Source: Candidatus Nanohaloarchaea archaeon
GTDB lineage: Archaea; Nanohalarchaeota; Nanosalinia; Nanosalinales; Nanosalinaceae
DNA: 40,184 nucleotides
Assembly: GCA_046497485.1 (NCBI GenBank)
Contig: JAWOFP010000029.1
Span: forward strand, 1 to 40,184
Reading direction: 5' to 3'
The number at the start of each line of letters is the position of its first letter. The first letter of the stretch is position 1. Positions 1 to 40,184 of this stretch are shown piece after piece. A program made the position numbers and the translations under genes. The notes below the pieces were generated by a model that worked only from the letters and a program-made list of their open reading frames with translations, made no database searches and was not told where the DNA came from.

Positions 1-488
1 GTGCCGTGCTGATCGTCATGGAAAACTGGCACATTTAATCTATTCTTCAAAGCATCCTCAATTCTGAAGCATTCCGGAGCGGAAATATCCTCTAAATTGA
101 CTGCGCCAAAAGTTGGAGAAACATTCTCGACTGTTTCAATTATCTCTTCTGGCTCATCTGTATCCACTACAAGAGGAAATCCATCTACTTCTCCAAATTT
201 CTTCATTAGATTGGCTTTTCCTTCCATCACCGGCATAGAAGCTTCAGAACCGATATCTCCAAGGCCTAAAACTGCGCTGCCATCGCTTACGACTGCTACA
301 AGGTTTCCTTTACTTGTATATTCGTAGGCCTTTTCTTTATTTTTACTTATTTCTTTACAGGGTTCAGCAACTCCTGGTGTATAAACTAGGCCTAAGTCTT
401 CTTTCCCATTAATTTCGACAGAAGGTTCGACCGAAATTTTTCCAGGATTTTTACGGTGAAGTTCCAGTGCTTCTTCTCTATTTGTCAT
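1..488 (-). CDS. NAD(P)-dependent malic enzyme, N-terminal part (runs off the window)
   Basis: Not in the ORF track. Manual translation from ATG at 488 gives MTNREEALELHRKNPGKISVEP...LGLVYTPGVAEPC...GNLVAVVSDGSAVLGLGDIG...PVMEGKA...VNLEDISAPECF...PVFHDDQHG, which are canonical malic enzyme motifs. Confidence 0.95.
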   Translation of the reverse strand, partial: MTNREEALELHRKNPGKISVEPSVEINGKEDLGLVYTPGVAEPCKEISKNKEKAYEYTSKGNLVAVVSDGSAVLGLGDIGSEASMPVMEGKANLMKKFGEVDGFPLVVDTDEPEEIIETVENVSPTFGAVNLEDISAPECFRIEDALKNRLNVPVFHDDQHG

Positions 489-568
489 AGAATATAGATG
501 TTTGTAAAATTGGTAAATACTCTTTGAATAACCAAATAATATTTAAATGTTGTTACTAATTAGTTAAT

Positions 569-1060
569 ATGGCAAATACCAAAGTCTTCGACAATGATGT
601 TGTAGAATATGAAACTCCTGAAACCGGAGAATACAAAGTTGAAACAGATTCTACAGTTCTAGTAGACAGAGGAGAAGAACTTCAGACAATTGAAGAAAAC
701 ACAAATATATTTCTCGAAGAAGGAACGGAAGTTTATATTCCAAATGATGGAGAAACACAAGTTTACAACCCGGATAAGCCAGAAGAAACTAAAATATGGA
801 GTCCTGAAAACACTGAAGAGACAAAAATCTGGGATAATCCAACAAGCGATAACCCAAGTAATACTCAGCCTTATGACTCTTCAGAAGACACTGACTGGCC
901 AACACCTAATTTCACAAATCCAGAAATAAATACGATTAAAAATAACTATGACTGGATGTTCCAAAAAAGCCTAGAATCGGGAGCAAGTCCAAAAGAATCA
1001 GCAGAAGCGGCATCCGAAATGGCGATGACGATGGCCGATGTAGTAGACCGGCTTGAATGA
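569..1060 (+). CDS. Hypothetical acidic protein with short internal repeats
   Basis: 163-aa ORF with TTTAAA box about 25 bp upstream (542-547); repeats TEVYIP / ETQVYNP / EETKIWSP / EETKIWDNP. Confidence 0.7.
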   Translation: MANTKVFDNDVVEYETPETGEYKVETDSTVLVDRGEELQTIEENTNIFLEEGTEVYIPNDGETQVYNPDKPEETKIWSPENTEETKIWDNPTSDNPSNTQPYDSSEDTDWPTPNFTNPEINTIKNNYDWMFQKSLESGASPKESAEAASEMAMTMADVVDRLE

Positions 1061-1067
1061 TATTGTA

Positions 1068-2849
1068 TTACTCCGAACTCGATCCCCGTTTAACTATAAA
1101 TCCTCGGTAAGTTGGATGCCGATAGTAACTATCATTATCTTTGTATTCTTTGGATTCGGGAAGGTTATTCTCATTTCTAAACTCATCTAGCCTACTGAGT
1201 ACTTCTTCAGAAGCATTTTCATGAATATAAATTATTACTATATTTACAGGACTGCTATTATCTTGGAATTTGAACAGTTTCTCATCAAATTTCATCTGAA
1301 AGTCTATTCCGAGACCTGATAGAATACTTAGAGCTTGCTTGAACATTTTACCTGTCAAGTCAGGCCTGTCTTGACAGTAATGTATTTTGAATACCTCATC
1401 ACCCCTATTATTTTTATTTAAATTGCTAATTTGGTTTCCTTTGAGAGTCCAAAACCATGCCATTTCAGGATTAGCCCCATCACCTCTTGGAGAGTAAGCA
1501 TATTTTATACCATCCGCCTCCATAGTATCTGAAAGAGATTTGAGATCTCCAAAAGTTGTATCTGCGGTTATGTTTTCTGATTTAAGATAATCGAAAGTTC
1601 CCACAAGATCATTCTGTTCAATATTTCTTTGATTTTCTCTCTGATCCTCAGCCTCAATTTTTTCTTCAGCTTCTGAAAGCTCTCTTTCTTCTCTATCCAC
1701 CTGCCCCGAAACTTCCTGTTCAGCTTCTGAGGCCTCTTCTTGTATCTGTTCTTCTTCCTGTTCTTCTGTTTCTAGGTCTGCCCCTAAAGTATTCAAGACC
1801 TGTTTCAATTTTTCGGTTACTTCTAATATTTTGTTTTTCTGATTCTCAGTAAGATCTGATCTTTCCCAGGCCTGTTGAGCTAAATTTTCTACAGAGTTCG
1901 CTCCTTCAAGTACTGTTTTTATCTCATTTATCTCTTCCTGTGTAGTTTTCTCTGTCTGTTGTTCTATTTGTCGGAGTTCTTCTAATTTTTCAACTATATT
2001 TTCTTCCATTCCAAGAATCTGTTCAATTGTCGATTCAATTTTCTGAATTTCTTGATTAGTTAACTGAAGATCATGATGACTTTGGGCTTTATTCGTCATC
2101 CGAGATATCGCTTCTTCAACTTCTGAAGTCTGTGAAATAGCATCTATACAGACCTCAATATCTTTGAGTGATCTCATATTTTGTTTCATATCATTAACTA
2201 ATTGATGTTCTTCTTGACTCAGTAAATCTTCATAATTGGACTGATTGGACTCAATTTCTTCTATCGCAGATTCTATAGATTCTATATTGTTAATTATGTT
2301 ATTAGCTATGTTATCCTCGGTTCCAGCAACTACATCTTCTCTGCCTGAAAGCTGTCTCAGTTTGTAAACAATACCTTTTCCAGGACCTAAGGCCTCATTA
2401 ATAGTATTTAGCTTTTCTTTTTCGTCATTTCTAAGCTGCAGAAAAGTTTTGGATTTTTGGAGGATGTCCTCTAAATCTCTTCCTGAAGACTCGACCATGA
2501 GTTTAAACGCGTTAATAGGTTCTTCCATATTCACTACAGCTTCATAGAGATCACTTGGTTCTGGTGCATCGCTTTCAGGCCTTTGACCTGAGCTAACCTT
2601 TGAGGCTCTTTCTCGCATATCTGTGATAGTTGAATCTGATTGCTGTGTAGCTGTTTCAGCTGAGCCCATATTTACATCACTAGCAGAATTTCCAGAAGAT
2701 CGGCCTGACAGAAGCTTGTAAAGTAGGCCTCCGCCCACTATTCCTCCTATAAGACCTGCAAAGAATCCTGAGCCATTATTTTTTCTGGAGATTGATAGAA
2801 TCAGAAAAAGTAGAATTAAAAGCACCAAAGTACCTATAATCCTCTCCAT
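1068..2849 (-). CDS. Membrane-anchored coiled-coil protein with C-terminal globular domain
   Basis: Long ORF, probable start MERIIG at 2849. N-terminal hydrophobic helix plus Gly-rich helix, a long E/Q/I/L heptad region, then a C-terminal ~170 aa domain. Confidence 0.8.
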   Translation of the reverse strand: MERIIGTLVLLILLFLILSISRKNNGSGFFAGLIGGIVGGGLLYKLLSGRSSGNSASDVNMGSAETATQQSDSTITDMRERASKVSSGQRPESDAPEPSDLYEAVVNMEEPINAFKLMVESSGRDLEDILQKSKTFLQLRNDEKEKLNTINEALGPGKGIVYKLRQLSGREDVVAGTEDNIANNIINNIESIESAIEEIESNQSNYEDLLSQEEHQLVNDMKQNMRSLKDIEVCIDAISQTSEVEEAISRMTNKAQSHHDLQLTNQEIQKIESTIEQILGMEENIVEKLEELRQIEQQTEKTTQEEINEIKTVLEGANSVENLAQQAWERSDLTENQKNKILEVTEKLKQVLNTLGADLETEEQEEEQIQEEASEAEQEVSGQVDREERELSEAEEKIEAEDQRENQRNIEQNDLVGTFDYLKSENITADTTFGDLKSLSDTMEADGIKYAYSPRGDGANPEMAWFWTLKGNQISNLNKNNRGDEVFKIHYCQDRPDLTGKMFKQALSILSGLGIDFQMKFDEKLFKFQDNSSPVNIVIIYIHENASEEVLSRLDEFRNENNLPESKEYKDNDSYYRHPTYRGFIVKRGSSSE

Positions 2850-3150: not shown

Positions 3151-3519
3151 ATGACAGAGCTTGACGAAAAAGAGAAAAAAGTAATCGAACAATGCGGCAC
3201 AGAACCTCGATTCTCATCCGATTTACTCGATGAAAAGAGAGACGGAAAGTTCAAATGCAAAAAATGTGGACAGGCCTTGTTCTCATCAGACCACAAGTTT
3301 GAATCCGGAAGCGGTTGGCCAAGTTTCTACAATGTGCTAGACGCAGAAAATATTGAGAAAAGAGAAGATAATTCTCACGGAATGAAACGGACAGAAGTAG
3401 TCTGTTCAAACTGTGAGGCGCATCTAGGCCACCTATTCAAAGATGGACCGGAAGAAGAGACAGGCCTTCGCTACTGTATAAATGGAATAGCGCTAGAATT
3501 TGAGGTGGAAGGACAATGA
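3151..3519 (+). CDS. msrB: Peptide methionine-(R)-sulfoxide reductase MsrB
   Basis: CKKC and CSNC zinc ligands, KFESGSGWPSF, HLGHLFKDGP, RYCING. Confidence 0.97.
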   Translation: MTELDEKEKKVIEQCGTEPRFSSDLLDEKRDGKFKCKKCGQALFSSDHKFESGSGWPSFYNVLDAENIEKREDNSHGMKRTEVVCSNCEAHLGHLFKDGPEEETGLRYCINGIALEFEVEGQ

Positions 3520-4034
3520 ATGACGAAATTGTGTTAGGCGGAGGATGTTTCTGGTGCACAGAGGCTGCGTTCAAAGAAGTAGATGGAGTCAAATCAGTTA
3601 CCTCAGGATATGCCGGAGGCCATACAGAGAATCCTTCCTACCGGGAAGTATGTTCGGGAGACACAGGGCATGCCGAAGTAGTCAAGATAGAATATAATGA
3701 GGAAGAATTAGGCCTGGAAAAAATTCTCGATCTTTTCTTTAGGATTCATGATCCTACTACAGAAGATCGTGAAGGCCCGGACATCGGCTCCCAGTACCGA
3801 TCAATAATTCTCTACCAAGATGAGGAGGAAAAAGAGGTTATTGAGGCCTTTATAGAGGATCAGCAAGAAGATTATGAAGGTGAAATTGTGACAGAAGTGA
3901 AGGAGTTAGAGAATTTTTATATTGCTGAGGACAAGCATCAGGACTACTTTGAGAAAAATCCTGAAGATGCTTACTGCCGTATAAATGCGAGCCCTAAAGT
4001 AGAGAGAGCCAGAGATTTTAGTTCCAAAAATTAG
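3516..4034 (+). CDS. msrA: Peptide methionine-(S)-sulfoxide reductase MsrA
   Basis: GGGCFWC, GYAGG, TGHAEVV, HDPT, QYRS, AEDKHQDY; ATGA overlap with msrB. Confidence 0.97.
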   Translation: MNDEIVLGGGCFWCTEAAFKEVDGVKSVTSGYAGGHTENPSYREVCSGDTGHAEVVKIEYNEEELGLEKILDLFFRIHDPTTEDREGPDIGSQYRSIILYQDEEEKEVIEAFIEDQQEDYEGEIVTEVKELENFYIAEDKHQDYFEKNPEDAYCRINASPKVERARDFSSKN

Positions 4035-4061
4035 ATAACATTCAGGCCTAAAAACTAGTTT

Positions 4062-4832
4062 ATGAGCGATGAACGCGATCCTGAGGAAGAGCTTCAAGAT
4101 GGAAAGGAGCAGCTTCAGGAAGGCGCCCAGAAAATCATGCAAGGCGGTATTGCAAAGGGTAAACGCCAGAAAGAAAGCTTGAAATACTATCACAGGAATC
4201 GTTCAGAAGTTCTCGAAGACTTGGGATTCAAGTTCGGACAGCAAAAGAAGCCTGCAGCTCAAGGCCTCATTGTTTTGCTTCCAATCTTTGTTGTTGGACT
4301 TATTGTTGACTGGCTTTTCAGCAAAATTGAGCAAGTGCCTTACAACGAAATACTAAATATAACCTCTTACTATGTCATTAATCAGTCCATCAAGCTGGCA
4401 GCGCTTCTAACTATAGGGACAATAGCAGTCACAGTTACAGGTCAAGCAGTTAAGACAAAATCAGGCTTTGAACTTGAGAAACTAGTAGATAGAATCATAG
4501 GAGGAATTCCATTTCTAGGAGCTATCTACAGAATAACAAAAGTAACGACCGAAACAGTCATAGAGGGTACAGAAGAACTCAGCAAACCTGTCAAAATCGA
4601 AGTCGCAGGCATGCAAATGACAGCCTTCAAAACCGGAAATACTACAGAAGAAGGAAGAGAAATACTTTTCATGCCGACAGCACCAAATATCAGCTCAGGT
4701 CTAATACTCGAAGTCAAACCAGAAAACATCATAGAAACAGACGAATCACCAGAACAGGCCTTAACAAGAACGTTAAGCGCAGGATTTGGGCAAAGCAAAC
4801 CTGTTGTAGAAGATGATTCGGATACCAGTTAA
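4062..4832 (+). CDS. DUF502-family membrane protein
   Basis: Two TM helices, IPFLGAIY, FMPTAPNISSG, LSAGFG. Confidence 0.85.
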   Translation: MSDERDPEEELQDGKEQLQEGAQKIMQGGIAKGKRQKESLKYYHRNRSEVLEDLGFKFGQQKKPAAQGLIVLLPIFVVGLIVDWLFSKIEQVPYNEILNITSYYVINQSIKLAALLTIGTIAVTVTGQAVKTKSGFELEKLVDRIIGGIPFLGAIYRITKVTTETVIEGTEELSKPVKIEVAGMQMTAFKTGNTTEEGREILFMPTAPNISSGLILEVKPENIIETDESPEQALTRTLSAGFGQSKPVVEDDSDTS

Positions 4833-4851
4833 ACGAACTTAAACACCCGGA

Positions 4852-7421: not shown

Positions 7422-7483
7422 ATAGCAGCCATTAATACTAAATTGTTAAATTAATGAGTTCACCGAAAAGTCGCAAACGATTT

Positions 7484-7491
7484 TTTATATA
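7484..7491 (+). promoter_or_regulatory. TATA box of the pdh operon (likely leaderless mRNA)
   Basis: TTTATATA about 26 bp upstream of ATG 7517, preceded by a purine-rich BRE-like sequence. Confidence 0.6.
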
Positions 7492-7516
7492 CAATCAGAG
7501 GCCTTTCCAAAGTATA

Positions 7517-8575
7517 ATGGCGCGTGAAGAAGTATATTCTGGTTCGATCCAGCGAATCGAAGTGATGGGAACGGAAGACGACGAAGACTTTCCATGGATC
7601 GAGGAGGACGAGTACAGGGAACTCTACAAGAAAATGATGATTGCAAGAAAATTTGATGAAAAGGCCTTCTCCCTACAGAGACGAGGAGAAATATCTACTT
7701 ACGCACCTCATAAAGGACAAGAGGCCTGCCAGATCGGAGCTATTTTTGCTTTACAGGAAGATGACTGGATGGTTCCTTCTTTCAGAGAGACGGCCGCATT
7801 TATTCAGAGAGGCGCGCCACTAGAAAAAATATTTCAGAGATGGATGGGAGACGCAAACGGACAGAAAGGCTTGTCAGACCTGAATACATTACCTGTTGCG
7901 ATCCCCGTAGGGACTCAGAATCTACATACAGCCGGTCTTGGGATGGCGATGGAGTTCGAAGAAGATGGAAACGCAGTTATAGGGTTTACAGGCGATGGAT
8001 CAACTTCACAAGGAGACTTCCATGAATCTTTGAATTTCTCAGGAGTACACGATGCGCATTCCGTCTTCTTTGTTCAGAATAACAAGTTTGCGATTTCCAT
8101 GCCTGTTGAGAGACAGACTAATTCTCAGACTATAGCTCAGAAGGCATTAGCTTATGGAATTGATGGGATACAGGTCGATGGAAATGATATTTTAGCAGTT
8201 ATTAAAGCTACTCAAGAGGCATTGGAAAAAGCTCGTAACGGAGAACCTGTACTGATTGAGGCCGATACCTATCGCCTGGAAGACCATACTACTTCGGACG
8301 ACTCCACTCGTTACAGAGATGAGGAAGATGTAGAAGAATGGAGCAAACATGATCCATTAAAGCGATTTAGAGAATACCTGAAAGAACATGGAATGTGGGA
8401 TGAAGAATTAGAGGCCTTTGAAGATGAAGCCAAGGAAATGGTGAATGAGGCTGCCAATAAAGCGATGGAGATGGATGATCCTGAGTTCGATGAGTTATTT
8501 GACTTTGTCTACAAGGATATGCCAGATCTTCTCAAGAAGGAGAAAGAAGAACTGAGAGAAGAGGTGACAGAATGA
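7517..8575 (+). CDS. pdhA: Pyruvate/2-oxoacid dehydrogenase E1 alpha
   Basis: LQRRGEI, GQEA, TPP motif GDGSTSQGDFHE...QNN, YRLEDHTTSDD. Start moved to MAREE (7517) because of promoter spacing. Confidence 0.95.
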   Translation: MAREEVYSGSIQRIEVMGTEDDEDFPWIEEDEYRELYKKMMIARKFDEKAFSLQRRGEISTYAPHKGQEACQIGAIFALQEDDWMVPSFRETAAFIQRGAPLEKIFQRWMGDANGQKGLSDLNTLPVAIPVGTQNLHTAGLGMAMEFEEDGNAVIGFTGDGSTSQGDFHESLNFSGVHDAHSVFFVQNNKFAISMPVERQTNSQTIAQKALAYGIDGIQVDGNDILAVIKATQEALEKARNGEPVLIEADTYRLEDHTTSDDSTRYRDEEDVEEWSKHDPLKRFREYLKEHGMWDEELEAFEDEAKEMVNEAANKAMEMDDPEFDELFDFVYKDMPDLLKKEKEELREEVTE

Positions 8576-8628
8576 TCGAAACTCATAGAGTTTCTGGTCA
8601 TCCAGAAAATCAGGTGATTTTCGAATGA
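8572..8628 (+). CDS. Putative 18-aa bridging mini-ORF between pdhA and pdhB
   Basis: MIETHRVSGHPENQVIFE; ATGA overlaps with both the pdhA stop and the pdhB start; GAGGTGA at 8561-8567. Confidence 0.45.
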   Translation: MIETHRVSGHPENQVIFE

Positions 8629-9593
8629 CAGAAAAAATGAATATAATTGAAGCTGTGAACGCAGCACTCGAAGACGAAATGGAAGAAGACGAAAAAGTAA
8701 TAGCCTATGGAGAAGATGTCGGAGAAGACGGCGGAGTCTTCCGCGCGACGGAAGGCCTCCAAGAAAAATTCGGGGAAAAGAGATGCTTTTCTTCACCATT
8801 AGCCGAATCCGGTATCGCGGGCACAGCAATCGGGATGAGCCTTTACGGTTTTAGGCCTGTAATTGAGATGCAGTTCTCCGGATTCTCATACCTAGCTTTC
8901 TATCAAATAAAGGAGCATGCATCAAGAATGAGGATCAGAAGTCGTGGAGACTACGAAGTTCCTCTGACAATGAGAGCGCCTTACGGAGGAGGAATCTCAG
9001 CGCTCGAACACCACCAAGAATCTCCTGAAGCATTTTACGCACATGCACAAGGCCTTCATGTCGTGATACCGAGCACACCTCAAGATACCTATTCTCTGCT
9101 CAGGAAATCGATTCAGATGGATGATCCTGTGGTTTTCCTTGAACCTAAAAAGACCTATAGAGCGTTCAAGGAGGAAGTAGATAGAGATAAAGAAGTAGAA
9201 CTTGAAGACTCTAGAGTTGTTCAAGAGGGAAGCGATGTTACACTGATAGCTTGGGGAGCTATGGTCCCTGTAGCTGAAGATGCGGCAGATGAAGTAGATG
9301 CAGATGTCGAGATAATCGATCCAAGAACAATCTATCCAATGGATTTTGATACTATAACAGAATCAGTTAAGAAGACTGGAAGAGCTATGATTCTTCACGA
9401 AGCCCAGAAATCTGGCGGTTTCGGAGCAGAAATCAGTTCTAGAATCCAGGAAAACGCGATTCTTAACATGGAAGCGCCAGTTGAGCGAGTGACAGCGCCA
9501 GATGTGCCTTATCCGCTTTACACTTTGGAAGATTTCTACATGCCGAATAAGAAGAGAGCAGTCAAAGGCCTCGAAAGAGTCCTTGATTTTTAG
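8625..9593 (+). CDS. pdhB: Pyruvate/2-oxoacid dehydrogenase E1 beta
   Basis: GEDVG..GGVFRATEGL, PLAESGI, EMQFSGF, HHQESPE, FLEPK. Confidence 0.96.
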   Translation: MTEKMNIIEAVNAALEDEMEEDEKVIAYGEDVGEDGGVFRATEGLQEKFGEKRCFSSPLAESGIAGTAIGMSLYGFRPVIEMQFSGFSYLAFYQIKEHASRMRIRSRGDYEVPLTMRAPYGGGISALEHHQESPEAFYAHAQGLHVVIPSTPQDTYSLLRKSIQMDDPVVFLEPKKTYRAFKEEVDRDKEVELEDSRVVQEGSDVTLIAWGAMVPVAEDAADEVDADVEIIDPRTIYPMDFDTITESVKKTGRAMILHEAQKSGGFGAEISSRIQENAILNMEAPVERVTAPDVPYPLYTLEDFYMPNKKRAVKGLERVLDF

Positions 9594-9603
9594 GTGATTC
9601 AAC

Positions 9604-11196
9604 TTGAAATTCGAATTCCCTGACACCGGTGAAGGAGTAACAGAAGGACAGTTCCTCGAATGGAAGATAGAAGAAGGAGACGAGGTCGAGGAAGATCAAA
9701 TAGTTGGGGAAGCGGAGACGGACAAAGCAGTAGTAGATGTTCCGGCGCCTGCTGACGGAACTGTGAAAGAATTGAGGGCATCACCCGGCGACAATGTGAA
9801 AGTCGGCGATGTTATAATGATACTAGATAAAGAAGGGAGCTCAGATGAAGATTCCCAAGAGACCTCAAATCGATCAGAGGATGCTGAAGTAGACAAAGAT
9901 TCAGATGAGAGCAGCAGTAAAGAAACTCGGAGTAAAGAGTCAAGTAAGACGGATGCTATAATGGGAGGATCGCCTTCAGCAAGTTCATACGACGATGAAG
10001 AGGAACAAGAAGAAACAGATGATAATGAAGGGGGCTCAGAATCAAGTTCTGGCGATGTTCTAGCATTGCCGAAAGTTAGAAAGTTAGCGGAAGAGAAAGG
10101 AGTAAATCTTGGTGCTCTTGATATTAATGGAAGAATTACTGAAGAAGATGTGTTAGAGGCCTCAGAATCAGGCGAAGTAGTAGAAAATGAAGCCGAACCT
10201 GAAGAAGAAGTTGAATCTGAGAGCTCAGAACCTGAGACAACAACCGATGAAACAGTAAAACAGGACATGAGTGATGTGAATGCTAGACCTTCAGTTAGAA
10301 AATTAGCGCGGAAACATGATATCGAAATCTCTATGCTAGACGGTAGCGGAAGAGATGGCGAGATTACTAGAGAGGATGTGCTTGAGGCAGCGGGAGAGAC
10401 TGAGCCTAAAGAAACAAAGGAGAAATCCGAAGAAGAATCTAAGAAATCAGAAACTGAAGGCGTTAAAGAAGAGAATACTGACAGGCCTGAGATAGAGCAT
10501 GAAGGAGATGTTGAAAGAGTTGAGATGTCAGGAGTTAGGAAAGTTACCGCGGAAAGGATGGCCCAGTCAAAGGATGAAGCCGCCCATGTAACTCATATTG
10601 AGAAAGCTGATATCACGGAACTCGTGGAGCTCCGGGAATCTGTTAAAAGCGATGTAGATGCACATCTAACTTATCTGCCTTTCATCATGAAGGCCTGTGT
10701 CGCCGCTCTAAGAGAGCATCCAAACCTGAATTCCGAGCTTGACGCTGAGCACGATGAGATAATTCAGAAGAATTTCTACGACTTCAATATAGCAGTGGAT
10801 ACCGAGAAAGGCCTTTTAGTGCCTAAAATCGAGAATATTGATGGCAAGAACATGATTGAACTGGCTCAGGATATCGGCGATAAAGCTTCGAGAGCTCAGA
10901 ACGGAGAGCTAGATAGAGAAGAGATGGAGCCCGGCACCTTCTCGATAACCAACCTTGGAGTAATAGGGGGAGAGGCCTTCACCCCAATAATCTATCCTCC
11001 TCAGTCCGCGATCTTAGGAATTGGAAAGATTCAGGAGACTGCAGAAGTAGTAGATGGGGAGGTTGTTCCAAGAACGACCGTTAAATTAAGTTTAAGCTAT
11101 GATCACCGTGTAGTAGACGGTGCAGAAGCCGCTCGTTTCATGAACAAAGTAGTTAAAGATCTTGAAAACCCGAGAAACTTGATAATCGATATGTGA
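9604..11196 (+). CDS. pdhC: Dihydrolipoamide acyltransferase E2
   Basis: Lipoyl domain ETDKAVV, two subunit-binding domains, catalytic DHRVVDG; TTG start with AGGTGA SD. Confidence 0.96.
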   Translation: MKFEFPDTGEGVTEGQFLEWKIEEGDEVEEDQIVGEAETDKAVVDVPAPADGTVKELRASPGDNVKVGDVIMILDKEGSSDEDSQETSNRSEDAEVDKDSDESSSKETRSKESSKTDAIMGGSPSASSYDDEEEQEETDDNEGGSESSSGDVLALPKVRKLAEEKGVNLGALDINGRITEEDVLEASESGEVVENEAEPEEEVESESSEPETTTDETVKQDMSDVNARPSVRKLARKHDIEISMLDGSGRDGEITREDVLEAAGETEPKETKEKSEEESKKSETEGVKEENTDRPEIEHEGDVERVEMSGVRKVTAERMAQSKDEAAHVTHIEKADITELVELRESVKSDVDAHLTYLPFIMKACVAALREHPNLNSELDAEHDEIIQKNFYDFNIAVDTEKGLLVPKIENIDGKNMIELAQDIGDKASRAQNGELDREEMEPGTFSITNLGVIGGEAFTPIIYPPQSAILGIGKIQETAEVVDGEVVPRTTVKLSLSYDHRVVDGAEAARFMNKVVKDLENPRNLIIDM

Positions 11197-11203
11197 TAAA
11201 TAA

Positions 11204-12607
11204 ATGGTAGTAGGAGACATCGAGACAGGTACAGAACTTCTAGTAATAGGAGGAGGTCCTGGAGGATATGCAGCAGCGATTAGAGCTGCGCAGAAAGGCC
11301 TAGATGTAACATTAGTTGAGAAAGAGGATATCGGCGGAACCTGTCTAAACAGAGGCTGTATCCCTGCAAAGGCCTTAATTCATGCCGCAGGATTCCAGAA
11401 AGATATGGAAAGCTGGGACGAGATTGGCATCCATAATGAAGGTTTAGATGTTGAGTTCAGTGAAGTTCAGGAGTGGAAAAATGATATTGTAGAAAAGTTG
11501 AATATTGGAGTTAAGAATAAGCTTGATGCTGTAGGGGTTGAAGTAATGAAAGGTGAAGCACATTTCATCGATGATTCAACTGTTCGAGTAGAGGAAGAAC
11601 ATAGAACCGACAAGTTAAATTTTGAGAAATGCATAGTTGCGACCGGAAGCAGGCCTATAGAGGTTCCAGGCCTGGAATTTGAGAAAGAAGGCATAATATC
11701 GTCGCGAGAAATGCTGAATCTGGAGGAAGTTCCAGATGAACTTGTCGTTGTTGGTGGGGGCTACATAGGAATGGAGGCAGTGACTAAATTCTGCAAGTTC
11801 GGCTCTCATGTAAAAATCGTGGAAGCAGAGGACCGAGTTCTTCCTAACTTTGATGAAGAGATTGTCAATAATATTCAGGAGACTTCTGACTGTTACAATG
11901 ACGAGATTTATACCGGCACAAAGGCCTCAGAAGTTAGAGAAGGAGAAGATCCTGTTCTTGTAGCAGATCAGAATGGTGAGAAAGTTGAAATTGATGGAGA
12001 TTATATCTTAGTTGCTGTAGGCCGTGAAGCCCATTCAGGGCTTGAAAGCGTAAAATTGGAGAACGCAGGACTAGAAGTCAATGAGAGCGGGTTTGTGGAT
12101 ACAGATTCTCAGATGAAGGCTTCTGAAAATATTTTTGTGATTGGTGATGCCGCAGGACAGCCAATGCTAGCTCATAAGGCCTATATGGAGGGAAAAGTAG
12201 CTGGAGAAGTAGCAGCCGGGGAAAATACTGGAATGGATTCACAGTTTATCCCGAAAGTTATGTATACTGATCCTGAGGTCGCTGTTGTAGGTCTTACAGA
12301 ACAAGAAGCCAAAGAGGAAAATGAAGATGTTAAAGTTGGAAGGTTTTCTATGAAGCATTCTGGCCGAGCTTTGACAACTAACGGTGGAGAAGGATTTGTG
12401 AAAGTTATAGCCTCCAAAGAGAACAAGTTGCTTGGCGTTACAATTATCTCCGAGAGAGCATCTGACATGATTGGAGAAGCGACTTTAGCGCTTGAGATGC
12501 AGGCCTATCTCGATGATATTATAGGCACAGTTCATGCACACCCTACATTCCCCGAGGCGTTTCAGGAGGCCTGTGAAGACGCCTTGAATAAAAGTATTCA
12601 TACATAG
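11204..12607 (+). CDS. lpdA: Dihydrolipoamide dehydrogenase E3
   Basis: GGGPGGY, GGTCLNRGCIP, GGGYIG, HAHPTFPE. Confidence 0.97.
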   Translation: MVVGDIETGTELLVIGGGPGGYAAAIRAAQKGLDVTLVEKEDIGGTCLNRGCIPAKALIHAAGFQKDMESWDEIGIHNEGLDVEFSEVQEWKNDIVEKLNIGVKNKLDAVGVEVMKGEAHFIDDSTVRVEEEHRTDKLNFEKCIVATGSRPIEVPGLEFEKEGIISSREMLNLEEVPDELVVVGGGYIGMEAVTKFCKFGSHVKIVEAEDRVLPNFDEEIVNNIQETSDCYNDEIYTGTKASEVREGEDPVLVADQNGEKVEIDGDYILVAVGREAHSGLESVKLENAGLEVNESGFVDTDSQMKASENIFVIGDAAGQPMLAHKAYMEGKVAGEVAAGENTGMDSQFIPKVMYTDPEVAVVGLTEQEAKEENEDVKVGRFSMKHSGRALTTNGGEGFVKVIASKENKLLGVTIISERASDMIGEATLALEMQAYLDDIIGTVHAHPTFPEAFQEACEDALNKSIHT

Positions 12608-14119: not shown

Positions 14120-16513
14120 TTAGAACTGTCCTAGGCCTGACTGTTTACCTTTGCCCTTTAATTGGTCTTCTGTGTATCCAAAGACTTTCAGCACTCTCAT
14201 AGTCACAGGGATAATCTGGTTATCCACATAGTAATCCGCATCGTAATTCTCCGCATACTTAGTTAATTCCGCCTGTTCTGAGATTGACTTACCTGTTCTT
14301 GTAATCACATAATCTATTGTGGTTTCAGGCTCTATCTCGTCTCCGCGCTTCATCGCTTTTTTCGCGGCCTCTACATGAGGGGCTGTATTCCCATATTCTT
14401 CAGGAGGCTTAGTTAAAGTAGTGTAAATCTTGAGCTCTTCAACATCTACTTCTCCCGACTTCAAGGCCTCAATCGTATCCTTAACAATATCTACTGCTTC
14501 ATCTACATCATCTTCCAATACTTTCCTCAGTACTTTTTCCTGAGTGTCTTTAGCTATAGGGCTCCAGTCCCTTCTGACCTGTTCGAACCCTGTTATCTTC
14601 ATTGATCCATCTTCATCGATCAATGCATACTTCTTTTTAGCTCCTTCTCCAGACTCTTTTGAAGTAAAGAATCCTCGCTTAAAAAGGCCTTCAAACTCCA
14701 TTTCCATAAACTCTGGTAATTCAGAGTTCACTCTGTCAAGGAATTCATCTAAATATTCTTCTAAGTCGTCTTTCCTCAACATCACAGAATCTGTGTCGCC
14801 ATAGGTCATTTCAAAGCCCATATCTTCCGCTATTTCTATGGCGTCTTTGATGTATTCTCGTCCTAGGTATGTTGTTGCTTCGGCGCTCTCTCTAGAGTAC
14901 CAGCGCGCACCACTATATCCAAGATATCCGTAGAAAGAGTTTGCAAGAATTTTTTGCGCCTGCTGTCTATTATCTACTGACTTATACTCCTTTGAATCTT
15001 CTTCCAAATCTTTCAATTTTTTCTTCAAATCGTAACGCGAGCTTACTAAGTCTTCGACCAGTTCGGGGAAAAATCCTTGCTGATCCTGACAGAAGTTATA
15101 ATCGAACTCCTCTAGCTCAAACCTGTCATCACATTCATCTAAGTTCAATGTGTCAGGCGAAATATTGTGAGCCACCATCACCGTCGGATACAGCGACCTA
15201 AAGTCGAATACTGCTACATTTTCGTAAAGGCCTTCTTCAGGAGTGTAGACAAATCCTCCAGTGTAGGCCTGTTCTCGGTCGCGTTTACTTCTCTTCTGCT
15301 GGGAAGGCCTGTTACGAGTTAACATGTTCCTGTTGTAGGCCTCTCGAATCAGATAGTTCTCTGTCAGCTGGCCATAGGTGAGCCTTGAAGAGTCGAAAGG
15401 AATCAACCCAGTGATCTTCGAGAGCTCCATCACTTGCGGAGTAATCTCATTTCCTAACTCGTATGTAATGTCGGCATCTTTCATCGCATATTCTGCGAAC
15501 TTCTCTAAATTCTCTTCAGTTTCCCAAATTTCCTTCATCTCACTCCATGAAAGATCGTCTTTGTTCAGGCCCAACATCTCTTCAGCAACAGAATCTAAAT
15601 CCAATGTCTCAGAATCTATTCCAGGCGCTAAAATATGAGTAATAAATGGATAGAGATCAATATGCATCCTCCCTTTGATTCTTGCTCCTTTAAATCTCCC
15701 TCGGCGGTTGAACTTCATTCTCTCACCGTTTCTACCTAGAGAAAGCTCAACATTGTTTCTGTTGGCAGCTTCTCTCAGGATGGAGAAATCATATTCATCT
15801 GTATTATATCCTGTAAGTATATCGACATTTTCGTCTTCTATTATCTCTATAAATCTCTCTAACATCTCTGTCTCATCTTCTACTTTCTCAGCGAAATCTA
15901 GGTCTACTTCTTTCATCGTTAGAAGTTTTCTAAAGTTCTCAGACCTGAAAGACGCCATCACAACCCGGTCATCGATTACCTCGAGATCAAAGGCCATACT
16001 GTTCCACTCAAAACCGTCTTCTTTTTCCACAGAGCTTATATCTTCGATTATTATCTCTTTCTCAAAATTGTCAGAGTCTTTTTCTTCACCCTCTATCTCT
16101 ACCCAGCTACCAGGCCTAACTCCTTTGTCAATTAGATACCGTCTGTAGAACGGAATATCAAACTCTAAGCATCTTCTAACCGATTCCAGATCCCAAAGCT
16201 CATTTTTTAGTTTAGGAACGCTTGCAGGTATATCCGTTACAACCTTCAAGGCCTCTACTGTTTCCTGACCATACTTCTTCTCTTCGACTTCTGTCTCAAG
16301 AATTTCAAGTTCTTCGCCTTTATCCGACTCGAAATCATTCTCTTTAACATCCTCTTTCAACTGTTCAAGGTCTGTCGGCATAGCATAGAAGTAGGGTTTG
16401 AAGCTCTCATCCACTAGCTTATAGCAGCCCTCTTGATTCTTTCCGTAGAGTATAACTCTCAATGGATCTGTTTCATATTCTGCGTCAAAGACCTGAAACT
16501 CCATAACATTCAT
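14120..16513 (-). CDS. polB: Family B DNA polymerase with 3'-5' exonuclease
   Basis: Exo motifs FDLE, YNTDEYD, YAMKDA; polymerase motifs DFRSLYPT, KILANSFYGY, YGDTDS, KKKY; no intein. Confidence 0.97.
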   Translation of the reverse strand: MNVMEFQVFDAEYETDPLRVILYGKNQEGCYKLVDESFKPYFYAMPTDLEQLKEDVKENDFESDKGEELEILETEVEEKKYGQETVEALKVVTDIPASVPKLKNELWDLESVRRCLEFDIPFYRRYLIDKGVRPGSWVEIEGEEKDSDNFEKEIIIEDISSVEKEDGFEWNSMAFDLEVIDDRVVMASFRSENFRKLLTMKEVDLDFAEKVEDETEMLERFIEIIEDENVDILTGYNTDEYDFSILREAANRNNVELSLGRNGERMKFNRRGRFKGARIKGRMHIDLYPFITHILAPGIDSETLDLDSVAEEMLGLNKDDLSWSEMKEIWETEENLEKFAEYAMKDADITYELGNEITPQVMELSKITGLIPFDSSRLTYGQLTENYLIREAYNRNMLTRNRPSQQKRSKRDREQAYTGGFVYTPEEGLYENVAVFDFRSLYPTVMVAHNISPDTLNLDECDDRFELEEFDYNFCQDQQGFFPELVEDLVSSRYDLKKKLKDLEEDSKEYKSVDNRQQAQKILANSFYGYLGYSGARWYSRESAEATTYLGREYIKDAIEIAEDMGFEMTYGDTDSVMLRKDDLEEYLDEFLDRVNSELPEFMEMEFEGLFKRGFFTSKESGEGAKKKYALIDEDGSMKITGFEQVRRDWSPIAKDTQEKVLRKVLEDDVDEAVDIVKDTIEALKSGEVDVEELKIYTTLTKPPEEYGNTAPHVEAAKKAMKRGDEIEPETTIDYVITRTGKSISEQAELTKYAENYDADYYVDNQIIPVTMRVLKVFGYTEDQLKGKGKQSGLGQF

Positions 16514-19903: not shown

Positions 19904-19976
19904 AAAGAAAGTATAACTTCTCTAATTGATAAAGTTCTTGGAAACTGATTAAAACCGCGAGGCCTCATTCAAATTT

Positions 19977-24446: not shown

Positions 24447-24460
24447 ACCCTAAAAAAGGC

Positions 24461-29347: not shown

Positions 29348-30154
29348 ATGACTGATCCTAGACCTGAAGACGATGAACAATGGACTGTTGATGATGAACT
29401 TGAAGGAGACGGCGGCGAAGAAATAGAAACTGAAGAAGAAGAACTTGAAGAAGATGACGGGTTAAATATAAGCCGGAGGCAGGCTTTAGGCCTAGGTGCT
29501 CTAGGCCTTGGAGGCTGGGTGGCTGCTGGCGCATACCTCTACGATGGAGGAGATGTAGCACCCGGAATAGGTAATAATTCATCTGATCCTGGAACATCGC
29601 CAATACCAGGAGGCTCTGATGAAAACCCCCCCGAGGATAGTAGCGTTTACGAATTATCAAGTGAGGTTTCCGTTGATTTGGACTATCTTGACCCTATTTT
29701 CAATGACTCAGAAGTAGAAATCGGCATCCAGGAGAGCGGAGACCTAGTGGCCTGGAACCAGAATGTAGAAATCGGAGAAGGAGATGACGCTTACAATCCG
29801 CTTTACAGATTCAGAACCGAGAGATTCCCGGATCGAGGGTTCTTCGATGTCGATGGAGATCACCCTATAGAAGAGCTATACAATGATATTGATGCTGAAG
29901 TAGATGAGATGAGTGAAGGCATGGTGAAAGTGTTTTACGATGAGGCCATCGATGATGGAACTTGGAGAGATCATCAAGATTATAAGCCTATCGACTTTGA
30001 AGAACTAAAAGAAGGACTTCTCGAGCATTCAGGCCCTGGACCAACTCAGGATTACTTCTTTAACAGATATGAGACCCTAGAGGAGGGCGAAGAGGTGCTA
30101 GAAGATGAATGGGAAGAACTGGTTAGAGATGGGCTTGAAGCAAATCAGGGCTAG
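29348..30154 (+). CDS. Hypothetical membrane-anchored/exported protein with twin-arginine-like motif
   Basis: GAGGTGA SD; ISRRQALGLGALGLGGWVAAGAYL after an acidic N-terminus. Confidence 0.75.
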   Translation: MTDPRPEDDEQWTVDDELEGDGGEEIETEEEELEEDDGLNISRRQALGLGALGLGGWVAAGAYLYDGGDVAPGIGNNSSDPGTSPIPGGSDENPPEDSSVYELSSEVSVDLDYLDPIFNDSEVEIGIQESGDLVAWNQNVEIGEGDDAYNPLYRFRTERFPDRGFFDVDGDHPIEELYNDIDAEVDEMSEGMVKVFYDEAIDDGTWRDHQDYKPIDFEELKEGLLEHSGPGPTQDYFFNRYETLEEGEEVLEDEWEELVRDGLEANQG

Positions 30155-30159
30155 AAGAG

Positions 30160-31929
30160 GTGATGAAATTGAATAGAAAGCTTGTGATAACAGTTCTTTC
30201 AGTTTTATTTATAGGTATTTTAGCAACGCCATTGGCTGCGGCACAGTTTGGCGGAGGAAACTCCGGCAATAATGAAAACGGAGACTTAGGAACTGATGAC
30301 GAAGATTTAGATTCTGGCACAGAAAGCGATGATTCCGATTATGACGGCGGTAATGCTGATTCAGGAGATTTTGGTTCAGATTCATCTAGTGAGCCTGATA
30401 GCATTGATGGAGGAGGCTCTGAAGATAATGAGGGTACAGATTCCAGTAGCGATGACAGCAGTTCAGAACAAAATGATAGTCCTTTTGATGACTTAGAGGA
30501 TTCTGATAGTTCAGATAGTGACTCAAATTATGATGGCGGCGACTCCACTAATAATGATGATTATGGAGGAGGAGACTCCACCAATAATGATGGATCAACA
30601 GAGGATTCTAATGATGCAGATACCGATTCTGACAGTGAGTCAAACTATGATGGCGGAGATTCTGAAGACAATGAAGACAGTTCTACAGAGGATAATTTTG
30701 ATGATGGAGACTCTGGGGACGCTGAGAACAACGAAGAGGCCTCTAACTTTGATGGCGGTGACTCAGAAAATAATGAAGAAGAAAGTTCTACGGAAGATGA
30801 CTTTGGTGGAGGGGACTCCGGAAATAATGAGGATGGCTCAAGTTTCGACGGAGGAGATTCACAGAATAATGATGATACCGGTTTCAATGGAGGCGACTCG
30901 GAGAATAACGAAAATGAGACAGATTATGATGGGGGAGACTCAGAAAATAATGAACCTGGGTTTGATGGAGGAGACTCAGAAAATAATGAAAACGAAACAG
31001 ATAATTCAGATCCGACAGATCCTAATGACGACAATAATAACGATAATAATGGCTCAGGAGACGACAACAACGATTCAGAAGATGATGGAGAGGATTCTGA
31101 AAACAGCGGTTCAGATGATCGAGGGCCAGATGATGAAAACGGTGAAAGCGGAAACGATGATAACGAAGATAATGGCACTGATGAATCTAATGGTGATGAG
31201 GATGACAGCAGATCTTCCTCAAGCGGAGGCAGTTCAGGTCAGACACATTATATTGCTCCCGAACCCGAGAGCGAGATAGAAGCAGAGGTCGATCCAGATA
31301 ATATCCGGTTCGGCGAATCGGCAATAGTCTCTGGAACTATAACTGGCGGAGACAACCCAAACCAGGAAGTTGAAATATTACTGAACGGGCGTCTAGAGAC
31401 TACTGCCTTCACAGATGATGAAGGAGAATTTAAAGTCAAGATCAGGCCTTCGGAAGCTGGAAATAATGAAATAACAGTTAGGACTGATGAAGCTGAGAAA
31501 ATTCTATCTATTAATGTGAGGCCTACTGTAAGCATCGATTCTATGTATACTTCGCTTGAAAGCTCTGCTGGAGACTCTATTGAAGTCTGCGCCGATATCA
31601 GATCGCAGACAGATGCAAGAGTTACACTGTATCATAATGGCCAAGAATTTGAGTCAAAAAATGGTCGTGGAGAACTATGTTTTAGGCCTGATTTAGATCA
31701 GGGAGGTAACAGTTATCGTGCGGTCGCAGTCGTAGATGGAGATAGAGATGAAAGAGAGATAAGTAGGAACACCTTCTCGAACGGGCCTAGAGCCGCTTCA
31801 ATGGCAACAGGGGCTTTTGCCGCCCCCACGGCAAATAGGATCCCTCAGTTAGTAGCCATAGTTGCAGGGGCACTAGGAGTTATAATGAGAATGATGGGTG
31901 TCAGGCCTCTAAGAATATTTACTAATTAA
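30160..31929 (+). CDS. Secreted surface protein with D/N/G/S repeats, Ig-like domains and C-terminal TM anchor
   Basis: Signal peptide, repeated (F/Y)DGGDSENN, beta-rich region (TDDEGEF), C-terminal hydrophobic helix. Confidence 0.85.
   Translation: MMKLNRKLVITVLSVLFIGILATPLAAAQFGGGNSGNNENGDLGTDDEDLDSGTESDDSDYDGGNADSGDFGSDSSSEPDSIDGGGSEDNEGTDSSSDDSSSEQNDSPFDDLEDSDSSDSDSNYDGGDSTNNDDYGGGDSTNNDGSTEDSNDADTDSDSESNYDGGDSEDNEDSSTEDNFDDGDSGDAENNEEASNFDGGDSENNEEESSTEDDFGGGDSGNNEDGSSFDGGDSQNNDDTGFNGGDSENNENETDYDGGDSENNEPGFDGGDSENNENETDNSDPTDPNDDNNNDNNGSGDDNNDSEDDGEDSENSGSDDRGPDDENGESGNDDNEDNGTDESNGDEDDSRSSSSGGSSGQTHYIAPEPESEIEAEVDPDNIRFGESAIVSGTITGGDNPNQEVEILLNGRLETTAFTDDEGEFKVKIRPSEAGNNEITVRTDEAEKILSINVRPTVSIDSMYTSLESSAGDSIEVCADIRSQTDARVTLYHNGQEFESKNGRGELCFRPDLDQGGNSYRAVAVVDGDRDEREISRNTFSNGPRAASMATGAFAAPTANRIPQLVAIVAGALGVIMRMMGVRPLRIFTN
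30244..31000 (+). repeat. Degenerate coding tandem repeat (F/Y)-(D/G/N)-G-G-D-S-x-N-N
   Basis: About a dozen units, e.g. gatggcggtgactcagaaaataatgaa and gatggaggagactcagaaaataatgaa. Confidence 0.8.
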
Positions 31930-38320: not shown

Positions 38321-38324
38321 ATCT

Positions 38325-39005: not shown

Positions 39006-39053
39006 GTAATCTACTTGATAATGCTCCAATTTAATCCTTATGAAAAATAAGGA

Positions 39054-39782
39054 TTAGAAAAATGAGGTGACGAAACCATATACTCTAGTACCGGTATTAA
39101 CTACTCCGAAAGCCACTTTATTTCTAAAAGAGTAGGCCTCTACATCTATTCCTTCCCCATTATAGGCCTCTGTGAATTCCTCACTTGGATTCTCTGACTC
39201 CATTACTCTCTGGATGGTTTCGCTGTCCATGTTGATGTGGAGATCAGGGTTCTCAAATCCGCCTTCCTGGACATCCGTTACCCCTGTACTGTTGGTCTCT
39301 ATTCCAATAGTTGTATTATCAATCTGGAAATTAACGTCGTCCCCGAGAATAATTCCTGCAATCCTATCTGGAAGTGCCTCATCAATTACTTGATTAACTT
39401 GATCAAGATTTTCTTCAATCTGTTCAGTATCGTTTAACGCTTCTTTTACAGGAACTTCAGTCTCCGGAAGATCGGTCTCAAGCTCTTCATTTGTACTCAT
39501 TACATCCTCAAGGACTCCTTGTTCTCCTGCAGGAACCTCCATGAAACCAGAGTCACAGACCAGTACAAGGCCGCCATCCTCTGCCACACTTACCTCTTGA
39601 TCAGTAGCGATCTCCATATCCTGAGCAAGAGCCTCAGGACCTTCTTCGTTTATTATCTCTGCATTTTGGGCTTCAAGAACCGTACATGAGGCCTGAACAT
39701 CAGTGTTTTGAGAGGTTTGGGCGACTGCTGTAAAGCTAGTTAAAATTATTAGAGATAACAAGAACACAGATTTGGCTTTCAT
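39054..39782 (-). CDS. Secreted acidic protein, possible SCP2-like C-terminal domain
   Basis: Signal peptide MKAKSVFLLSLIIL; NPDLHINMDSETI...AYNGEGIDV pattern. Confidence 0.7.
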   Translation of the reverse strand: MKAKSVFLLSLIILTSFTAVAQTSQNTDVQASCTVLEAQNAEIINEEGPEALAQDMEIATDQEVSVAEDGGLVLVCDSGFMEVPAGEQGVLEDVMSTNEELETDLPETEVPVKEALNDTEQIEENLDQVNQVIDEALPDRIAGIILGDDVNFQIDNTTIGIETNSTGVTDVQEGGFENPDLHINMDSETIQRVMESENPSEEFTEAYNGEGIDVEAYSFRNKVAFGVVNTGTRVYGFVTSFF

Positions 39783-39845
39783 ACATGAATAGAACTCAGA
39801 GAATATAATAAAACTAACCCGGAACCATATCAAAAACCTAATTCT

Positions 39846-40184
39846 TCAGCCCTCAGGCCTTTTCCCAATGAATTTCTCTACTTCCTCTATAGCGGCTCCC
39901 TTATTGGAGAATCCATACATCGGATTATCTAATTCTTCTCCAAACTTCTCCGATTTCAAAGTCCAGAAACCGTTATCTTTCTTTTCCAATTTAATTGAGG
40001 CCTCAGTCTTTGAATGAATCCATTCATTATCCTTTCTAACCCATTCTCCGACTTTTCTCAAGTCTTTGCAGTAAGAAGAGTATTTCCTGTTTCCAGGCTT
40101 CGCAACTAATTGTGTATTACCGTCATAGTAGATCTCATATTCTCCTCCTGAAGGTCCGGTAACTTTCATCTCCTCCTCTTTCAC
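39846..40184 (-). CDS. Hypothetical protein (probably truncated by the window edge)
   Basis: Open frame extends to the window end. Confidence 0.6.
   Translation of the reverse strand: MKEEEMKVTGPSGGEYEIYYDGNTQLVAKPGNRKYSSYCKDLRKVGEWVRKDNEWIHSKTEASIKLEKKDNGFWTLKSEKFGEELDNPMYGFSNKGAAIEEVEKFIGKRPEG

Follow-up and report, generated by a model that had tools for sequence, protein, structure and literature searches.

Introduction

Highly iterated palindromes (HIPs) are GC-rich palindromic words that are over-represented 15–300-fold (Xu, Lawrence & Durand 2018, PMC5861425). As set out in the relevant passages of Elhai (2015, PMC4390886), a cognate methyltransferase is present whenever HIP1 (GCGATCGC) or any alternate HIP is abundant, and the one-base deviations from the word are biased toward its first and last bases. 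The distribution of HIP1 is described as periodic, with periods of 10–90 kb (Xu et al. 2018, PMC5861425). HIPs have been a cyanobacterial puzzle for three decades, with methylation-linked biased repair on one side and selection for a chromosomal function on the other. The subject of the present work is an archaeal hexamer, AGGCCT, in a 40,184-base stretch of DNA (hereafter the window) from Candidatus Nanohaloarchaea archaeon (GCA_046497485.1, JAWOFP010000029.1, positions 1–40,184). This window takes up contig C38 in full, and the genome to which it belongs, G000, comprises 967,558 bases in 66 contigs (GC 41.5%). AGGCCT is a HIP specific to its lineage; the force behind it works at the DNA level across the whole genome and favors both fixation and retention of the exact hexamer at any position open to it.

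No description of a hyper-abundant AGGCCT in archaea was found in the literature, with subscription journals and supplements lying outside the search. Papers on nanohaloarchaea that mention GGCC (PMC10609329 among them) deal with other topics as far as titles and opening lines of abstracts show, and those that link iterated palindromes with archaea are, by title, cyanobacterial or unrelated.

Abundance of AGGCCT

The window contains exactly 147 copies of AGGCCT between positions 262 and 40003, the last occupying 39998–40003; the sites are strandless. The initial annotation had put the number at about 147, with about 6 expected and an enrichment of about 25-fold. The count was exact and the enrichment close, for arithmetic from base composition (GC ~0.415) gives ~6.4 expected sites and an excess of 23x. 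Relative to dinucleotide composition, the excess is 16x (in 100 dinucleotide-preserving shuffles of the window the mean was 9.06, the standard deviation 3.05 and the maximum 18, and 0 of the 100 reached 147). Genome-wide, 3249 copies are observed against 153.8 expected from composition. This 21.1x excess makes AGGCCT the top 6-mer of G000 and bears out the earlier claim of a highly iterated palindrome of HIP1-like magnitude, while the second-ranked palindrome, CTGCAG, stands at 2.15x. The enrichment is not limited to one contig, since all 66 carry the word, at 1.8–5.8 sites per kb. As many as 3249 of the 4608 GGCC tetramers in the genome sit in AGGCCT.

Could the excess be artefactual, a product of base composition, codon usage, amino-acid make-up or faulty assembly? 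There is virtually no chance of this. The gene set used for G000 is a simple one based on open reading frames (ORFs; 1128 of them, covering 92% of the genome). Coding DNA has 3.31 copies of the word per kb. Non-coding DNA is equally dense, at 3.67 per kb, for all its GC content of only 35%, and by arithmetic its sites exceed the composition expectation ~37x. Shuffling synonymous codons within genes (n = 30) leaves 412.5 ± 19.3 sites (maximum 459), and shuffling codon order leaves 190.4 ± 12.2, against 2950 observed. Like the dinucleotide shuffles, both fall far below the real count, and the enrichment survives the within-gene synonymous shuffle. Of the two outcomes that the initial annotation had named as refuting it, loss under a codon-level shuffle and restriction to this contig, neither was seen. 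The codons AGG, CCT, GCC and GGC are ordinary in G000 and lend the artefact reading no support. The same signal is found in 13 separate assemblies, four of them single contigs, and a recount of one enriched relative, G005, from raw sequence gave 4131 sites (19.6x).

The coding sites of G000 fall in all three frames (536, 992 and 1422 sites). Among 691 Arg-Pro (R-P) dipeptides, 536 are spelled AGG-CCT where codon usage predicts 68.5. Protein sequences are affected by the pressure as well, since the dipeptides R-P and G-L are themselves inflated, with observed/expected ratios (O/E) of 1.60 and 1.44. Permissive positions were defined as R-P, G-L preceded by an A-ending-capable residue, and [E/K/Q]-A followed by a T-starting residue. 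AGGCCT is realized at 2950 of 4430 such positions in G000 (66.6%) and at 3624 of 4995 in G005 (72.6%), compared to 277 of 3063 (9.0%) and 51 of 1514 (3.4%) in the non-enriched relatives G056 and G047, the latter a partial genome. By arithmetic, the corresponding odds ratios are ~20–57, equivalent to a scaled bias of ~3–4. The pressure is of similar strength in spacers and at synonymous-permissive positions, and it acts on DNA and not on proteins or RNA signals.

Distribution and conservation

A survey of the class covered 70 genomes, with enrichment scored as the AGGCCT count against a reversed-word control. Thirteen genomes are enriched (4.3–17x control), and the remaining 57 lie at or below 1.63x. 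The 13 all belong to one family and comprise 5 of 5 species of the window's own genus (g1), 3 of 3 in g7, 3 of 3 in g25 and 2 of 6 in g2. Within g1, G004 is intermediate, with 762 copies in ~0.8 Mb and 5.05x control, as against 12.7–17.2x in its four congeners. The family-B DNA polymerase of the window (14120–16513, minus strand, identified by Pfam), which itself carries AGGCCT sites, served as the query for relatives and for a syntenic locus in the same genus, L013. Its closest named relatives are metagenome-assembled genomes of Nanohaloarchaea, in agreement with the earlier assignment to a DPANN archaeon. An 84%-identical relative has 51 sites in 14.9 kb, and a 62%-identical one has 6 in 22 kb.

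In g2, the trait is found in an on and an off state: G005 has 4131 sites and AGGCCT as its top 6-mer, against 325 sites in G056. No enriched word of 5–8 bases is present in G056, nor in the 573 kb (59%) of G047. In a quartet tree built on 58,185 concatenated columns from 194 four-way orthologues, enriched G005 pairs with non-enriched G056 (100% bootstrap), a split favored by 2329 informative columns, compared to 1079 and 987 for the others. It follows that G000 and G005, both enriched, are not sister genomes, and that there were two or more changes of state within the one family. Enrichment can be gained or lost between species of one genus. The prolyl-tRNA synthetase of G000 (C36:9097–10683) is 86.7% identical to that of G005 (429309–430784), where the median orthologue is ~60% identical, and only 23–24% matches are found in G056 and the partial G047. 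This pattern suggests a different type of prolyl-tRNA synthetase or a transfer between the enriched lineages.

How well are individual sites conserved? Within the genus, the comparison is that of the window with L013 only (15 kb, 73.6% nucleotide identity); here, 30 of 53 sites are conserved; for flanking hexamers matched in phase, the figure is 78 of 314. Across enriched genera, the comparison is that of G000 with G005 (median amino-acid identity 59.9%): 578 of 1720 aligned sites (33.6%) are at the same position, whereas 66 of 13,160 flanking positions (0.5%) are sites in the other genome and 1107 of the 13,160 control hexamers (8.4%) are identical. With two in three permissive positions occupied in each of the two, convergence could account for much of the sharing, which is no proof of common descent of the trait. 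At these positions, the non-enriched genomes have AGGCCT in only 4.0% (G056) and 0.8% (G047) of cases and carry synonymous alternatives (AGGACT, AGGTCT, AGACCT, AAGCAT). Between enriched and non-enriched genomes, codons inside sites are less conserved than the average codon (0.564 vs 0.640 for G005 and G056), which fits motif-driven replacements.

Variants, flanks and spacing

The near matches to the word form, most clearly in G005, a two-tier pattern around a GGCC core, like that described for HIP1 by Elhai (2015). The outer-base variants GGGCCT and AGGCCC are raised in G005 (1071 per Mb, against 177 and 52 in the non-enriched genomes). Of the inner variants AGACCT and AGGTCT, the two enriched genomes have fewer (337 and 689 per Mb) than the non-enriched ones (868 and 790). 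NGGCCT variants in G005 are 2–20x as frequent as in the non-enriched genomes, and GGCC outside AGGCCT is raised as well (2882 per Mb, against 1398 and 640). The outer-base bias is weak in G000.

The flanks of the sites in G000 are weakly biased, with T at −3 and −4 and A at +3 and +4. Fully non-coding sites have symmetric flanks, with T at −3 at a frequency of 0.47 in both G000 and G005, and with T-A-G before the word in G005. There is also a lineage "dialect": GAGGCCTC makes up 16.7–18.1% of sites in the enriched g2 species and 4.7–11.8% elsewhere. Raw spacing in G000 is under-dispersed, with a coefficient of variation of 0.90 and 197 gaps below 50 bp where an exponential distribution gives ~502. 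No periodicity in spacing was found up to 1.5 kb. At the 10–90 kb scale, the top peak in G005 is at 52.3 kb and is marginal (P = 0.046 against 500 bin shuffles); the largest contig of G000 is 59 kb. Sites are evenly spread along genes. A small excess of site starts lies 11–20 nt upstream of start codons (58, against ~30 per 10-nt bin), with a dip from −10 to +10 (13 and 14), and the GAGG of GAGGCCT may act there as a ribosome-binding-like element.

Sites and genes of the window

Of the 147 sites in the window, 138 lie in called ORFs, with 59 in the frame xxA GGC CTx, 58 in xAG GCC Txx and 21 in AGG CCT. Plus-strand genes hold 85 and minus-strand genes 53, and 9 are outside ORFs; the initial annotation was thus right in placing them in all frames, on both strands and in coding and intergenic DNA. 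The spacing averages 272 bp (median 217.5, minimum 11, maximum 1234). The closest pair (24457–24473) starts at 24457 and 24468, 11 nt apart, and a doublet at 29488–29508, with starts at 29488 and 29503, 15 nt apart, falls within the plus-strand ORF 29348–30151. The longest stretch free of the word (29509–30736) separates successive starts by 1234 nt. All of the sites that had been singled out (4044, 7499, 17342, 19960, 29488 and 29503) are present. Among those said to be intergenic or in promoters, three lie outside every called ORF: 4044–4049, between ORFs 3516–4034 and 4062–4832; 17342–17347, between ORFs 16558–17214 and 17676–18416; and 19960–19965, in the divergent region between ORFs 19427–19903 (minus) and 19977–20402 (plus). 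The site at 7499, however, is 45 nt inside the longest ORF 7454–8572, the true start of which is uncertain.

The gene names assigned earlier stand for a pdhB-type E1 beta, lpdA, polB and dnaJ, as judged by Pfam, which also identifies dnaK, but no ORF corresponding to msrA was found. The ORF carrying the sites at 262, 326 and 388 (3–488, minus strand, cut by the contig end) is instead a fragment with the N-terminal domain of malic enzyme. The pyruvate-dehydrogenase genes E1 beta, E2 and lpdA (8625–12604, plus strand; Pfam, with annotated orthologues in G005) have sites in several frames and show that AGGCCT is written into conserved genes. The operon to which they belong (7454–12604; E1 alpha, E1 beta, E2, lpdA) has orthologues in G005, where the match to E1 alpha has an in-frame stop near its start. 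These orthologues were not found in G056 (82% complete, 52 kb masked), in which E1 beta and E2 have no match and lpdA only a 33%-identical one.

The search for a driver gene

Four DNA-methyltransferase families were searched in G000 and none matched contig C38, in keeping with the earlier statement that the window contains no methyltransferase. The wider link to DNA methyltransferases or methylation-directed repair that had been proposed is not supported. The C5 family (PF00145) is present in 1 of the 12 enriched genomes searched (all but G055) and in three non-enriched ones; PF01555 (N4/N6) is present in 1 of 13 enriched genomes. Among the six enriched genomes searched for the others, PF02384 (N6) has strong matches in two, PF02086 (D12) has nothing above cut-off and Vsr is absent from all six. 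PF01555, PF02384, PF02086 and Vsr were rejected as drivers, none of them tracking the enrichment. Single-contig enriched G010 and G054 have only marginal methyltransferase matches (~23 bits). The second match of G010 and those of G053 and G057 fall in ORFs of 308–309 aa and cover a model region that is also matched by a THUMP/UPF0020 ORF of G000; the others are an 829-aa ORF in G010 and a 416-aa ORF in G054, both uncharacterized. A sub-threshold PF01555/PF02384 match at G000 C62:22818–23789 was discarded as a DNA methyltransferase, being a THUMP/UPF0020 RNA methyltransferase. On these family searches, a HIP1-style methyltransferase association with AGGCCT is not supported for the known families.

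The only C5 methyltransferase of G000 (C53:101–1264, 388 aa) adjoins a McrB-like AAA_5 ATPase, on the contig with the lowest AGGCCT density of the genome (1.83 per kb). It was rejected as the cause, having no homologue in G001–G005 or G010. The surrounding locus (L002, C53:98–4274) is a defence-like island that comprises the methyltransferase, a divergent 536-aa McrB-like AAA_5 protein and a 452-aa protein without a family. In G005, the strong PF02384 match (N6_Mtase, type I-like; 683444–684397) lies within an AGGCCT-poor island at 669000–686000, which has 21 sites in 17 kb where ~68 would be found at genome density. Seven smaller islands occur elsewhere in G005, and all of these are probably recently acquired DNA that is still unconverted. 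Other words are strongly avoided in G000: the 30 rarest 6-mers (O/E ~0.08–0.17) nearly all contain ACGT, and GTGCAC and CACGTG are at O/E 0.13. Restriction avoidance would seem to be behind this. The methylation motif given for Ca. Nanohalococcus in PMC11001535, GDGCHC, covers GTGCAC.

A gene-content screen was based on G000 proteins with a good match in G005 and none in G056, from which those present in the available 59% of G047 were then subtracted. It yielded 106 proteins before and 53 after the last step, annotated through their G005 orthologues with Pfam, NCBIfam and PADLOC, and no DNA-binding protein specific to enriched genomes came out of it. Several candidates were dropped. A Methyltransf_25 protein adjoining an Ogt-like gene has strong orthologues only in G000, G005, G022 and G049, and a platform protein of the type-IV-pilus or archaellum kind is in 61 of 70 genomes, without tracking enrichment. 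A 402-aa protein of unknown function is missing from G001–G004, G010 and G042 but occurs in G044, G068 and G050, which are not enriched; a 240-aa protein, also of unknown function, is present in non-enriched G065; and a 1236-aa G005 protein with a faint N6-methyltransferase match has no homologue in G000. With respect to DNA uptake, ComEC (PF03772) is found in 0 of 70 genomes and DprA (PF02481) in one, which is not enriched.

A pair of genes of the AddAB type was found at C62:17323–22496 in G000 and at 498840–504147 in G005. The AddA-like protein (889 aa) has UvrD-helicase and UvrD_C domains and a C-terminal PDDEXK_1 nuclease domain (PD-(D/E)XK), and its AddB-like partner (836/865 aa) also has PDDEXK_1. 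End processing of the AddAB type is usually associated with bacteria, but the pair is widespread in nanohaloarchaea (39 of 70 genomes). All 13 enriched genomes have the AddB-like nuclease, the four g2 species without enrichment lack it, and it had no match among solved structures by sequence. Its identity to the G005 protein is 41–46% in enriched g1, g7 and g25 and 43–45% in non-enriched G007 and G047.

What maintains the word?

The explanation favored here, if only tentatively, is a fixation bias exerted by a putative symmetric, sequence-specific protein via recombinational repair or gene conversion. A symmetric (dimeric) protein would recognize the GGCC core, the outer A/T bases and the weak symmetric flanks, and would bias the repair or gene conversion of heteroduplex or damaged DNA toward the full site. 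The outcome would be a molecular drive that feeds through recombinational repair and requires no canonical DNA methyltransferase, with DNA ends processed by the helicase-nuclease of the AddAB type that all enriched genomes possess. The degree of saturation, reached by a symbiont with a small genome, and the quick switching on and off fit such a drive better.

Several results weigh against this explanation. The one-off neighbors of the word in G000 are not depleted relative to composition (O/E 0.77–1.54 in all nine classes). When each gene's sites are re-dealt among its own permissive positions, with overlaps forbidden, pairs 6–12 nt apart are rarer than under this null (4 vs 21.1 in G000, z −5.1; 12 vs 33.0 in G005, z −6.2). 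In G000, the deficit weakly continues to ~75 nt, and there is an excess at 100–400 nt; of the permissive positions that have another site within 25 nt, 30% (G000) or 55% (G005) are realized, compared to ~75% at 100–400 nt. Mutual avoidance of this kind is not predicted by a pure per-site drive, and short-range avoidance and positional conservation together fit better with readings in which the word is a selected tag. For HIP1, Xu et al. (2018, PMC5861425) took positional conservation as a sign of selection over biased repair. Among seven proteins (six loci, with the two members of the AddAB-type pair counted separately) followed up from the 53, no gene specific to enriched genomes was found, and a screen for orthologues unusually alike in both enriched genomes returned only SerRS, MetRS, NMD3, Trm56 and similar proteins, nothing DNA-related. 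The AddAB-type enzyme cannot be the switch, since it is present in 26 of 57 non-enriched genomes, and one of these, G047, has no enriched word in its 573 kb. A naive Fisher test of the enzyme against enrichment gives P = 0.00017 with genomes counted as independent, but given the relatedness of the genomes, with no more than four genera behind the figure, the association is suggestive at most. Perhaps the enzyme is necessary for enrichment but not sufficient.

The main rival, although rather unlikely, is a Chi-like self-tag. The AddAB-type enzyme would read AGGCCT, and a dense, orientation-free tag would shield the symbiont's DNA against its end-processing nuclease and direct breaks into repair while word-poor DNA is degraded, the word being kept by selection and not by drive. 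The AddA-like and AddB-like gene pair in G000, its distribution (13 of 13 enriched genomes, 0 of 4 non-enriched g2 species), the positional conservation of the sites and the scarcity of close pairs, which is expected if a nearby second site is redundant, are all consistent with this, and Chi words are likewise short, species-specific and over-represented. Known Chi words are, on the other hand, asymmetric, strand-skewed and enriched few-fold, not 20-fold. Moreover, 26 of 57 non-enriched genomes carry the enzyme, among them G047 with no enriched 5–8-mer in 573 kb, and when compared by identity to the G005 protein, the AddB-like sequences from enriched genomes do not form a group. Unlikely, too, is a cause of the HIP1 type, in which a GGCC or AGGCCT methyltransferase would act together with methyl-dependent mismatch correction, the enzyme being non-canonical, encoded on unbinned plasmid or viral DNA, or derived from the haloarchaeal host. 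The counts of known families in enriched genomes (C5 in 1 of 12, PF01555 in 1 of 13, strong PF02384 in 2 of 6, PF02086 and Vsr in 0 of 6), the location of the G005 PF02384 copy in an AGGCCT-poor island and the ~23-bit matches that are all G010 and G054 have to offer argue against it; so does the nanohaloarchaeal methylome, which, in the passages that list its motifs, gives GDGCHC and not AGGCCT (PMC11001535). Nevertheless, the magnitude, the independence of frame and coding status, the conservation and the outer-base deviations in G005 match cyanobacterial HIPs as covered in Elhai (2015, PMC4390886), one C5 methyltransferase is present in G000, and a mobile gene would suit the patchy distribution; it has been proposed that a methyltransferase passed between a nanohaloarchaeon and its host (PMC11001535).

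Could the sites form a binding array for an abundant nucleoid or chromosome-organizing protein, with selection keeping ~1 site per 300 bp? This appears quite unlikely. Weak selection on ~3000 individual sites would be demanding for a symbiont with a small population, close relatives do without the word, the gene-content screen gave no enriched-specific DNA-binding protein, and there is no periodicity to 1.5 kb and only the marginal peak at 52.3 kb in G005 (P = 0.046). A palindrome with symmetric flanks would nonetheless suit a dimeric binder, the density is equal in coding and non-coding DNA, the sites are conserved, and the close-pair deficit could reflect a footprint; Xu et al. (2018, PMC5861425) argue for a nucleoid role of HIP1. 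Biased uptake of word-bearing DNA, followed by recombination that spreads AGGCCT, is very improbable. It would resemble the uptake signal sequences (USS) and DNA uptake sequences (DUS) of bacteria, which share the traits of abundance, flanks, spacing and dialects and can spread by drive alone; hyper-abundance in genes and spacers, the effect on the proteome, AT-rich flanks, the close-pair deficit and the lineage-dependent flank preference would all be accounted for. The known uptake signals are, however, 9–12 nt long and not palindromic, and a 6-mer would discriminate poorly against foreign DNA. The pilus- or archaellum-like platform protein (61 of 70 genomes) does not track enrichment. ComEC (0 of 70) and DprA (1 of 70, non-enriched) are weak evidence against uptake because archaeal uptake machinery is poorly known.

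A broader and more speculative frame would take in both the Chi-like tag and the drive. This would be a methylation-independent DPANN system, whose recombinational repair machinery reads a palindromic hexamer as a mark throughout the genome, either as an orientation-free analogue of Chi for the AddAB-type enzyme or as the target of a new gene-conversion drive. If so, such a system could overwrite two in three permissive positions, along with some of the proteome, in no more than the time over which one genus diverged.

Whatever its cause, archaeal AGGCCT offers a cleaner system than the cyanobacterial HIPs in which to look for one, with genomes of ~1 Mb and no canonical methyltransferase alongside. 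Natural on/off pairs within one genus (4131 vs 325 copies) and the intermediate G004 should help in finding it; no other natural case is as well suited as G004 to distinguish decay from build-up. Codon usage, dipeptide content and the apparent similarity between enriched lineages are all distorted by the word. It can also serve as a simple marker when contigs are binned or when mobile elements are to be matched to these uncultured symbionts.

Comparison with known systems

Chi sites of RecBCD and AddAB are known from E. coli, B. subtilis and Lactococcus. AGGCCT is like them in being short, lineage-specific and over-represented, with an AddAB-type enzyme in all 13 enriched genomes. It differs in its ~20-fold rather than few-fold enrichment and in the presence of the enzyme in 26 of 57 genomes without the word. 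Being its own reverse complement, it has no strand orientation, unlike Chi. The USS of Pasteurellaceae and the DUS of Neisseriaceae resemble AGGCCT in their thousands of copies, their presence in genes and spacers, their effects on proteins, their AT-rich flanks, their dialects and their even short-range spacing; AGGCCT, however, is palindromic and only 6 nt long, and the genomes lack ComEC (0 of 70) and all but one lack DprA. A further comparison is with very-short-patch repair by Dcm/Vsr in E. coli and with the GGCC methyltransferase and Mig T/G glycosylase of the Methanothermobacter plasmid pFV1. A repair bias at a short palindrome could enrich such a word, and AGGCCT has a GGCC core. The effect of Dcm/Vsr in E. 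coli is far below 20-fold, and in the enriched genomes searched Vsr is found in 0 of 6 and a C5 methyltransferase in 1 of 12.

The cyanobacterial HIPs are also a close parallel. AGGCCT differs from HIP1 in being archaeal, a 6-mer rather than an 8-mer, and without a co-occurring methyltransferase of the known families; it shows a short-range deficit of adjacent sites, and of a 10–90 kb periodicity there is only the marginal peak in G005. Like HIP1, it is strongly over-represented (here 20–21x), in all frames and in spacers, overrides codon choice, keeps conserved positions and is patchy among relatives, and in G005 most one-base deviations affect the outer bases and spare a core of four.

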